A stretch of DNA of 64,000 nt, from sequence record PQ471516.1; one strand, given 5' to 3'. Every line of letters begins with the position of its first letter. Positions within the stretch are counted from its first letter, which is position 1. This DNA is from Escherichia phage Turkey5. The translations under genes were made by a program, and so were the position numbers. Below, piece by piece: positions 12,731 to 13,423 of this stretch. The notes below the pieces were generated by a model that saw nothing but the letters and a program-made list of their open reading frames with translations, did not search any database and was not told the origin of the DNA.

Positions 12731-12760
12731 TTGGGAAATACTCCAGAAAAGTGCTATAAT
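12731..12760 (+). promoter_or_regulatory. sigma70-type promoter with extended -10 (TTGGGA-18-TGcTATAAT)
   Basis: TTGGGA at 12731-12736; TGC-TATAAT with TATAAT at 12755-12760. Confidence 0.5.
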
Positions 12761-12765
12761 GTATA

Positions 12766-13290
12766 GTGAAAATGACAATGGGCGGTGTAAGCCGGATAAC
12801 GAGAACCTAATTCTCTTGAAAATGTAAAGGATAGATGAGCTTTACCATTGTAGCGAAGTGCAGAAGAAACCCGTTAGAGTACTAGCAGCCATTCAAACAA
12901 GGCATAAGAACTACGAATCACGGCAATGCGGCACTATAAAGAACTCCGACAGCATAACAGAGAGTTCCTAGATAGACATATAAGGATCGCACCTTACCAG
13001 ATTTGCTAAGGGAGTTTAACTCAATAAATGCGGTCGCAATTTTTCACAAGAAAGTTGCGTCCAAATTTTGAGTAAACAAGTACTACTTTGGTCGAATAGA
13101 GTTAGTACTTTGTGCTGGGGATGAAAAGACCAGTGACCGTTGCATATGACTGCGATAGAGAGAAACAGAGCAACCCGCTTTCGTTCTCTTAAATTAGACG
13201 AGAAAGATCCGTCTAAAATTTGAGAAATTCGCAATTCGACAATTCCGATGCCATCAGCGTCAAGAAGAGACTTAATTGTCTCTTTTTTAT
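12766..13290 (+). ncRNA. candidate non-coding RNA of unknown class
   Basis: No + strand ORF of 60 aa or more between 12730 and 13423 in an otherwise tightly packed genome; promoter upstream and terminator at 13265-13290; visibly higher GC than flanking DNA; several internal helices (e.g. GGTCGCAA 13031-13038 with TTGCGTCC 13054-13061; TTAGACG 13194-13200 with CGTCTAA 13210-13216). Confidence 0.35.
13265..13290 (+). terminator. rho-independent terminator
   Basis: AAGAGAC-TTAATT-GTCTCTT followed by TTTTTTATT. Confidence 0.65.
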
Positions 13291-13423
13291 TACTTTCATT
13301 CCCCTGCGGGGGGATGAAATGTCCTCAACAAATCCCGTCAAGCTTTTAAAGTACAATATAAAGGAATGAATGAGTTTACGAAGTAAACGATATGAATTCT
13401 TGAGTTACGAAGGAACGAAGTGA

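Follow-up and report, generated by a model that had tools for sequence, protein, structure and literature searches.

A window of 64,000 nucleotides (nt) from Escherichia phage Turkey5 (PQ471516.1), numbered from its first letter, contains between positions 12730 and 13423 of the + strand a gap that almost certainly holds the gene of a structured noncoding RNA (ncRNA), roughly 0.55 to 0.65 kb long, belonging to a new family. By sequence, structure model, and literature, the RNA family is new. An earlier note on this DNA had proposed that the gap encodes a large structured ncRNA of open class, and this proposal is supported by covariation across 46 copies, a conserved promoter, and the absence of a coding signal.

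The gene upstream of the gap ends at 12729, and the gene downstream starts at 13424. As the earlier note had said, the + strand from 12730 to 13423 has no open reading frame (ORF) of 60 amino acids (aa) or more in the ORF listing; it contains only ORFs of 37, 49, and 33 aa, and the minus strand contains a single 72-aa ORF. The GC content inside the gap (0.40 to 0.42) is higher than that of the flanks (0.29 to 0.37), a modest but real difference that agrees with the description of the interior as GC rich. The folding-energy z scores against shuffled sequences were −4.3 for the + strand and −3.1 for the minus strand. In a consensus scan, promoter-like sites were not above chance (17 found and 19 expected in shuffles), and terminator-like sites were only slightly enriched over shuffles. 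The promoter and terminator hits are weak alone; the weight of the gap observation comes from comparison with other sequences.

The window region shares 98.5% identity with Escherichia phage vB_EcoM_JNE01 (OR670491.1), a 355.6-kb jumbo phage of the genus Asteriusvirus whose record leaves the corresponding gap unannotated. BLAST, a profile hidden Markov model (nhmmer), and a covariance model (R1, built on the 3' core region from 13113 to 13233) each found exactly four copies of the RNA in the JNE01 genome, at the following record positions.

Copy A, + strand: the copy in the window.
Copy B, about 8.2 to 8.7 kb, + strand.
Copy C, about 149.0 to 149.5 kb, + strand.
Copy D, about 267.0 to 267.4 kb, + strand.

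All four lie in ORF-free gaps, and each has an extended −10 promoter. Paralogs B to D share 71 to 76% identity with copy A; long stretches are invariant, and between them hairpins come and go. Together, the family makes up 0.6 to 0.8% of a 355-kb genome as conserved noncoding sequence.

Homologs were found in 71 of 50,697 phage records, every one of them a Rak2-like jumbo phage; conversely, no Rak2-like jumbo phage examined lacked the RNA. The host genera are Escherichia, Klebsiella, Salmonella, Erwinia, Yersinia, Pectobacterium, Cronobacter, Serratia, and Xanthomonas. The RNA occupies two to five places per record, mostly four or five and two in the RaK2/K64-1 group. A motif scan of IMG/VR with a looser pattern gave 40 loci, all on contigs of 345 to 378 kb or on fragments of such phages, and copies on one contig always share a strand; the first, strict DNA pattern gave three IMG/VR loci and three metagenome loci, all CBB-like. 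The copies are syntenic between phage genera. Neighboring genes differ from copy to copy, the downstream genes are unrelated, and the proteins upstream of copies B and D are unrelated to each other. Copy D and the RaK2 copy found, and only these, lie directly downstream of a sigma-70-family gene (Sigma70_r2, r3).

The alignment of homologous regions, a check that the earlier note had suggested, revealed both conservation and covariation. Alignments were built from 14 copies (RNAalifold), then 21, and then 46 copies less than 93% identical, and extra covarying stems were searched for. RNAalifold predicted 80 pairs from the 14 copies, with compensatory changes in 41. The final model, from 46 copies, contains 98 pairs in 20 helices, including three pseudoknots. 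In this model, 96.3% of the cells are standard pairs, compared with 36 to 43% when the 3' partners were slid by 1 to 3 columns. Two-sided (compensatory) changes were seen in 67 of the 98 pairs, compared with 22 to 34 in the slid register, and the covariation score was 0.478, compared with at most 0.095 when slid. None of 500 shuffles reached the observed pairing, compensatory, and covariation values, although shuffle controls overstate significance because the copies are related as paralogs and orthologs. The slid-register control is free of that flaw and is equally clear. Compensatory changes are thus well above the controls, as is characteristic of a structured ncRNA. The structure is a comparative one, with the variable regions aligned only roughly.

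The elements of the RNA are listed below in window coordinates (P, paired helix; PK, pseudoknot). Fractions in parentheses give the pairs with compensatory changes, followed where noted by the percentage paired.

12731-12736 and 12752-12760, + strand: promoter, with the −35-like TTGGGA and the extended −10 TGcTATAAT (scan and conservation).
12767-12806, + strand: variable 5' leader with a copy-specific hairpin at about 12783-12794 (poorly conserved alignment columns 47 to 158; constrained fold).
12807-12854, + strand: P1 (12807-12817 with 12827-12834; 7 of 8), the invariant GAUGAG, and P2 (12839-12841 with 12852-12854; 2 of 3).
12857-12935, + strand: P3 (12857-12861 with 12931-12935; 3 of 5, 99%), enclosing the invariant GCARAAGAAACCCG, P4 (12871-12878 with 12918-12923; two compensatory pairs, 95.5%), and a variable hairpin.
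12926-12979, + strand: PK3, AUG 12926-12928 with CAU 12977-12979 (2 of 3, 97.8%), spanning P5 (12941-12946 with 12962-12967; 6 of 6).
12968-13014, + strand: the most conserved junction block, consisting of CUnGAUAGACAUAUAAGG, P6 (12981-12984 with 12993-12996; two compensatory pairs, 97.8%), and CCA..GCUAAGGGAG (invariant or near-invariant columns).
13014-13077, + strand: optional domain closed by P6a (13014-13017 with 13074-13077; 4 of 4, 99.4%).
13032-13039 with 13055-13062, + strand: hairpin GGTCGCAA/TTGCGTCC inside the optional domain.
13078-13111, + strand: P7 (helices 11 and 12; 8 of 9), a long hairpin whose loop GUCGAAU (13091-13097) forms PK1.
13091-13240, + strand: PK1, the P7 loop (13091-13097) with AUUCGAC (13234-13240).
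13113-13116 with 13132-13135, + strand: P8 (3 of 4).
13139-13143 with 13170-13174, + strand: PK2, GUUGC with GCAAC in the P10 loop (3 of 5).
13151-13155 with 13229-13233, + strand: P9 (4 of 5).
13158-13162 with 13178-13182, + strand: P10 (3 of 5).
13185-13187 with 13223-13225, + strand: P11 (3 of 3), with an inserted hairpin at 13194-13216.
13241-13262, + strand: conserved single-stranded linker ending in AUCAGCGUCAAG, the first CGUCAR repeat (invariant columns).
13262-13295, + strand: intrinsic-terminator-like hairpin and U-run, core 13267-13271 with 13278-13282.
13296-13317, + strand: G hairpin UCAUUCCCC-UGCG-GGGGGAUGA (helix 20).
13325-13343, + strand: conserved tail CAACAAAUCCCGUCAAG, with the second CGUCAR repeat (invariant columns).
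13344-13423, + strand: loose 3' extension containing ACGAA repeats and small hairpins, which runs up to the downstream start codon (13424).

PK1 has compensatory changes in all seven of its pairs and is 99.7% paired across the 46 copies. PK2 changes from GUUGC/GCAAC to GUCAU/AUGAU in copy D, and PK3 occurs as AUG/CAU, AUA/UAU, ACG/CGU, and ACA/UGU. In the 3' core (13113 to 13233), which comprises P8, PK2, and P9 to P11, each helix is 96 to 100% paired. The + strand is the RNA strand, since many conserved G-U pairs (P8, P10, and P7) would be A-C mismatches on the other strand. Invariant nucleotides cluster in the junctions: GAUGAG, GCARAAGAAACCCG, CACGGCAAUGCGGC, GAUAGACAUAUAAGG, CUAAGGGAG, GACCGU, AACAGRRCAACCCGC, and AUCAKCGUCAR. 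The optional domain is missing from several copies, e.g., JNE01 copy C and CBB copy 1. RNAalifold also proposed long-range pairs of the tail (13325-13343) with 12836-12838 and 13010-13013 (helices 2 and 9); these are neither supported nor refuted by the comparison because they never vary. At the 3' end, the nhmmer alignment extends to 13427, and stems of the 3' extension have changed pairs in other copies, as judged by eye.

The individual helices proposed in the earlier note fared differently. The pairing ACAAGTACT/AGTACTTTGT is P7 and is supported by covariation. TTAGACG/CGTCTAA is the hairpin inserted in P11, where some pairs have changed, but it is present in only about a quarter of the copies. 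The pairing GGTCGCAA/TTGCGTCC, placed at 13031-13061 in the note, is the hairpin of the optional domain, with coordinates 13032-13039 and 13055-13062. GAGAA/TTCTC is wrong as a helix: it is not conserved, and its TTCTC is part of P1.

Two kinds of repeated sequence were noticed within the RNA. The direct repeats AUCAKCGUCAR and AAAUCYCGUCAR (13251-13262 and 13330-13342) flank the terminator and the G hairpin, and the two CGUCAR repeats covary between copies (AAG versus AG), as if one partner reads both. A module, UACAAUAUAG(A/U)U(C/G)CGUC, occurs twice, in the optional domain (13045-13062) and in the P11 insert (13194-13216), corresponding to alignment columns 430 to 460 and 603 to 628. The recurring UACAAUAUAG module may be a reusable tertiary-contact or protein-binding motif.

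The RNA has its own transcription signals. The promoter described in the earlier note, TTGGGA and TATAAT separated by 18 nt with TG ahead of the −10, was confirmed at 12731-12760 by the consensus scan. TGnTATAAT is found at a constant position in 39 of the 46 copies; the other seven are mostly sequences whose 5' end had been trimmed. The motif TGRRAY lies 15 to 19 nt upstream of the extended −10 wherever enough sequence was taken. From the position of these elements, transcription would start near 12767.

In the earlier note, an intrinsic terminator had been placed at 13265-13290; the scan puts a terminator-like hairpin at 13262-13287 plus the U-run. This hairpin (helix 19) occurs in about half of the 46 copies, with compensatory changes in five of five pairs. 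The second hairpin, claimed at 13301-13326, is conserved, but it lies slightly 5' of that position, at 13296-13317, with nine pairs and a UGCG loop. This G hairpin is found in 46 of 46 copies and is 88% paired, and it varies mainly by G-U changes. Runs of GGGGGG are rare in the phage genome, and 4 of about 11 are inside these RNAs. In every copy, the terminator hairpin, or its empty position, is followed by the G-rich hairpin and the tail at 13325-13343; no free-standing 3' modules of the G hairpin and tail type were found elsewhere in the phage genome. The promoter-to-terminator unit of the earlier note is supported, but conservation passes the terminator to about 13343 and, loosely, to 13423.

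Given the internal terminator and the conserved 3' module beyond it, two forms of the RNA are likely, a short transcript of about 0.5 kb and a read-through transcript of about 0.58 to 0.68 kb. In many genera, C-type copies on the + strand are flanked by minus-strand genes for endonuclease VII and the baseplate hub; about 680 nt from the promoter, a bidirectional terminator closes the unit. The B-type copies have a terminator-like hairpin and U-run between the −10 and the conserved core, and their own transcription may be attenuated.

These conserved promoters and terminators are not accompanied by any coding signal. The substitution rates at the three codon positions were 0.295, 0.324, and 0.308, without periodicity, and only 145 of 834 indel runs were divisible by three. 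Across the 610-column core, open frames were short, the longest having a median length of 69 aa, and the ORFs of the window copy had no match in Pfam or PHROGs. Missing conservation, missing covariation, or translated similarity to a protein had been named beforehand as evidence against an RNA; conservation and covariation are present, and no translated similarity was detected in Pfam or PHROGs. Some GenBank records annotate short hypothetical proteins across the RNA on either strand: KM507819 (gp516), LT960551 (g347 and g348), PQ464590 (CDS0411-0414), and MK773491 (7t3_0445-0447). These are probably spurious gene calls.

A short way upstream of the RNA gene in the window are an HNH endonuclease gene and a DUF7325 gene (11327-11920 and 12316-12729).

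The RNA does not match a known family. Rfam 15 at the gathering threshold gave no match in the whole 64-kb window. At E values up to 10, searches of 12600-13500 and of 14 further copies returned only noise, e.g., mir-290 and a wrong-strand CRISPR-DR. The failure of the earlier note to match it by eye to tRNA, tmRNA, RNase P, 6S RNA, or an intron core is borne out by the absence of any ARAGORN gene in the window and of any Rfam match. The note's mention of a GOLLD- or ROOL-type RNA as one possibility is not, since no match to the GOLLD, ROOL, HEARO, or intron models of Rfam was found. Likewise, the Rfam models of OLE, raiA, SRP RNA, and small self-cleaving ribozymes gave no match. Nor is the RNA inserted in a gene, and it is syntenic between genera. 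The C-type copies are convergent with their neighbors and half of the copies lack the terminator, which sets the family apart from riboswitches and attenuator leaders. RNase P was considered because of a by-eye likeness of A-rich CCCG blocks to CR-I, CR-IV, and J11/12, and was rejected: the blocks are not complementary, their order differs, and there is no covariance-model match. A full-text literature search for noncoding or structured RNAs of jumbo phages or the Rak2 group found no description of the family, which is also absent from a June 2026 jumbo-phage review.

GOLLD and ROOL are nevertheless the nearest relatives in kind, though not in descent. Like them, the RNA is longer than 500 nt, has many helices and pseudoknots, is phage encoded with its own promoter, is also found in bacteria, and has no linked protein. 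Unlike them, it is carried by jumbo phages of Enterobacterales, occurs as four to five paralogs per genome, and does not lie beside tRNA genes, which are elsewhere in the genome; no covariance model links it to either family.

A further comparison is offered by the Pseudomonas jumbo phage PA5oct, which belongs to a related jumbo-phage clade and in which ncRNA001 to ncRNA004 were defined by RNA sequencing (RNA-seq) (PMC7318152). These ncRNAs are 236 to 619 nt long, and two of them reach 2 to 5% of phage reads (PMC7318152). They come from ORF-free + strand loci (PMC7318152), as does the RNA described here. Homology between the two was not detected: nhmmer gave E values above 1, and the covariance model R1 found no match in ncRNA001 to ncRNA004. 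The 3' end of ncRNA004, UUUCCUUCCCAAACGGGGAGGAAAUCUUCUCCGCCCG, resembles the G hairpin and tail by eye, with homology undetectable.

The RNA is also present in a few bacterial genomes. Two of 5,426 complete Escherichia coli genomes contain a complete copy, from the promoter through every domain to the terminator, hairpin, and tail. This copy and the C-type copy of Serratia phage BF share 80.6% identity. In E. coli LR-29-1, it is part of an island of about 10.6 kb beside ffs, together with a tyrosine integrase split by IS3, a resolvase, and a candidate defense operon (DuOB, DUF488, and mSLOG; PADLOC PDC-M45). A scan of about 100,000 species genomes gave three further contigs with the RNA. The copy in Silvania hatchlandensis is full length and adjoins a large serine integrase, a CI-like repressor, DarT/DarG-like genes, and a GajB-like helicase. 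Enterobacteriaceae isolate RIT714 has a copy that runs off the end of the available sequence. The third is on a 2.8-kb contig of a metagenome-assembled genome labeled Clostridium, which may be misbinned phage DNA. The full copies in the E. coli and Silvania islands have the same promoter as the phage copies. Except for a DUF4326 domain, the island proteins have no phage homologs, and a search of plasmids did not find the RNA.

The islands themselves form a widespread family. Most members lack the RNA and have a protein of 480 to 498 aa in the slot after the integrase. A role for the RNA as an element of the island backbone was rejected on this ground; because most members lack it, the RNA in bacteria is instead rare cargo of mobile defense islands. 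One Klebsiella island contains a mini element without the core, consisting of the promoter, terminator, a degenerate G hairpin, and tail, before a 498-aa gene. Part of the noncoding sequence of this island recurs after the 498-aa gene, which gives this gene the look of a cassette. Islands of about 10 kb in this family were seen beside ffs or arsC in Klebsiella, Yersinia, Phytobacter, and E. coli LR-29-1. Their layout consists of an integrase, a variable slot, about 0.7 kb of noncoding sequence, genes for proteins of 257 and 118 aa, defense cargo (PDC-M45, SMODS, DarTG, or GajB-like), a resolvase, and DUF2188. The 257-aa protein, which has no annotation, occurs widely in Enterobacterales.

What the RNA does can be approached from its dose, its promoter, its fold, and its distribution. 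In our preferred reading, to which as a whole we give a probability of roughly 0.55, the RNA would act in trans as a decoy, sponge, or scaffold, or as an RNA-only particle, serving host takeover or the conflict with mobile defense elements. Host RNA polymerase would transcribe it from the onset of infection; because the promoter is of the host (sigma-70) type, expression in the first minutes would be expected. The internal terminator (13262-13295) would be leaky and give a short form along with a read-through form that extends through the G hairpin into the CGUCAR tail. The RNA would then act at high dose, as a folded particle binding a conserved partner from the enterobacterial host or the phage, and the four to five gene copies suggest that abundance is needed. 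The invariant junction nucleotides would be the binding or active site, with the variable peripheral hairpins dispensable. Invariant junctions amid dispensable hairpins point to one precise three-dimensional site. Since no protein gene is linked to the RNA and intact copies are found in phage-free islands, it may work alone or with a host factor.

Several points weigh against this reading. The literature search found no RNA-seq of any Rak2-like enterobacterial phage. Protein genes near the copies do not identify a partner, as none is consistently linked to the RNA. Bacterial copies are rare: 2 of the 5,426 E. coli genomes have one, and the species representatives, about 100,000 in number, yielded three contigs. 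The role as decoy or scaffold is read from dose, promoter type, and fold. Finally, three of the four copy types (A, B, and D) directly precede co-oriented genes, which makes a cis role possible, and the promoter, terminator, hairpin, and tail before the gene in the Klebsiella island are leader-like.

A bolder version of trans action is tentative and, on balance, doubtful. Here the RNA would be a large RNA machine of a new class, either a ribozyme or a self-assembling RNA-only particle comparable to the cages of ROOL and GOLLD. Jumbo phages would produce it in bulk from their four to five genes to disable or hijack a conserved function of the host, and mobile defense islands of Enterobacteriaceae would have captured it as a decoy against these phages.

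The main rival to trans action is a cis role, which we consider unlikely. The RNA, its terminator, and the hairpin-tail module would be a leader that controls read-through into early genes by attenuation or by antitermination of the nut or put kind. The co-oriented genes immediately after copies A, B, and D and the core-less element before the 498-aa gene of the Klebsiella island are joined here by the terminator that about half of the copies have at a fixed position between the core and the conserved 3' module, the second terminator-like hairpin just after the promoter of B-type copies, and the tail-core junction pairs of RNAalifold. Those pairs, however, are invariant and hence unproven, and the internal terminator is missing from the other half of the copies. 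No gene in the same orientation follows the C-type copies, which end at a terminator, and the genes downstream of the various copies are unrelated. HK022 put, lambda nut, and rrn boxB-boxA are similar in that a structured RNA follows an early promoter and a hairpin precedes a linear motif. They are elements of 20 to 75 nt located upstream of the terminators that they suppress, whereas here there is a core of about 450 nt and the hairpin and tail are downstream of the terminator. Such a core, with three pseudoknots, far exceeds the needs of known attenuators or of put and nut. In its position after a hairpin, the tail CCUCAACAAAUC (13318-13343) is faintly like the boxB-boxA arrangement of rrn leaders, and in sequence it is faintly like boxA, GCUCUUUAACAA.

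A replication-origin transcript is an improbable alternative. T4 uses several origins per genome (oriF/oriG transcripts), and the RNA could by analogy form a persistent R-loop and be processed to prime several origins of the 355-kb genome. ColE1 RNA II and T4 oriF/oriG share with it a promoter-driven structured RNA of about 0.55 kb and a G-rich element, and here, too, the RNA ends near a G-run. The four to five copies are dispersed and co-oriented, the phage encodes RNase HI, and a copy on a small integrative island could give it access to the phage replisome. Copy C adjoins the minimum of the cumulative GC skew, but the skew tracks gene orientation here and is uninformative. Moreover, the conservation of structured RNA runs well beyond the G hairpin, the sequences are unrelated to those of the ColE1 and T4 transcripts, and downstream there is no conserved AT-rich unwinding element and there are no iterons. 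The plasmid search was negative, and within the island family the element occurs in Klebsiella without its core and is entirely absent from other variants.

Still less probable is a selfish or catalytic RNA, such as an intron-like, retroelement-like, or other ribozyme, that spread within the phage genome and into bacterial islands. Multiple copies in unrelated contexts, some of them in mobile islands, would fit such an element, as would the invariant junction nucleotides and pseudoknots that are typical of ribozymes and the HNH endonuclease gene two genes upstream of the window copy. However, Rfam returned no group I or II intron, HEARO, or ribozyme match even at E values up to 10, each copy has its own promoter, and no reverse transcriptase or linked nuclease was found. 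Synteny between genera indicates old paralogs, not recent insertions.

We regard an anti-CRISPR RNA as highly improbable. Here the G hairpin would imitate the repeat of a type I-E CRISPR system and tie up Cas6e or Cascade; UUCCCCUGCGGGGGGAUGAAA resembles GUUCCCCGCGCCAGCGGGGAUAAACCG, and early expression from multiple copies would suit a decoy. Against this, the matches are to unrelated CRISPR-DR models, at junk level (E values of 5 to 7, far below gathering) and on the opposite strand, which does not make the hairpin a repeat mimic; its stem length and loop are unlike the repeat, and the conserved 450-nt core would be left unexplained. A decayed protein gene or a chance ORF-free gap, for which the short hypothetical proteins in several GenBank records might speak, is effectively refuted by the lack of codon periodicity, indels that are mostly not multiples of three, the absence of Pfam and PHROG matches, and the strong RNA covariation.

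Large intricate RNAs of unknown function are rare, and the main examples are OLE, GOLLD, ROOL, and raiA. Such discoveries have opened new structural biology, most recently RNA-only cages. The family described here is found in cultivable jumbo phages of E. coli, Klebsiella, Salmonella, and Erwinia, among them candidates for phage therapy, which makes genetics feasible at once. Current annotations leave the RNA loci blank or cover them with spurious small ORFs, and with a covariance model of the family, more than 70 phage genomes could be reannotated correctly. If the RNA were indeed a bulk-made machine that islands have captured, it would be the first RNA-level weapon common to both sides of the conflict between phages and islands. 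Its presence in the cargo slot of islands offers a direct way to ask whether RNA is a currency of phage-host conflict.

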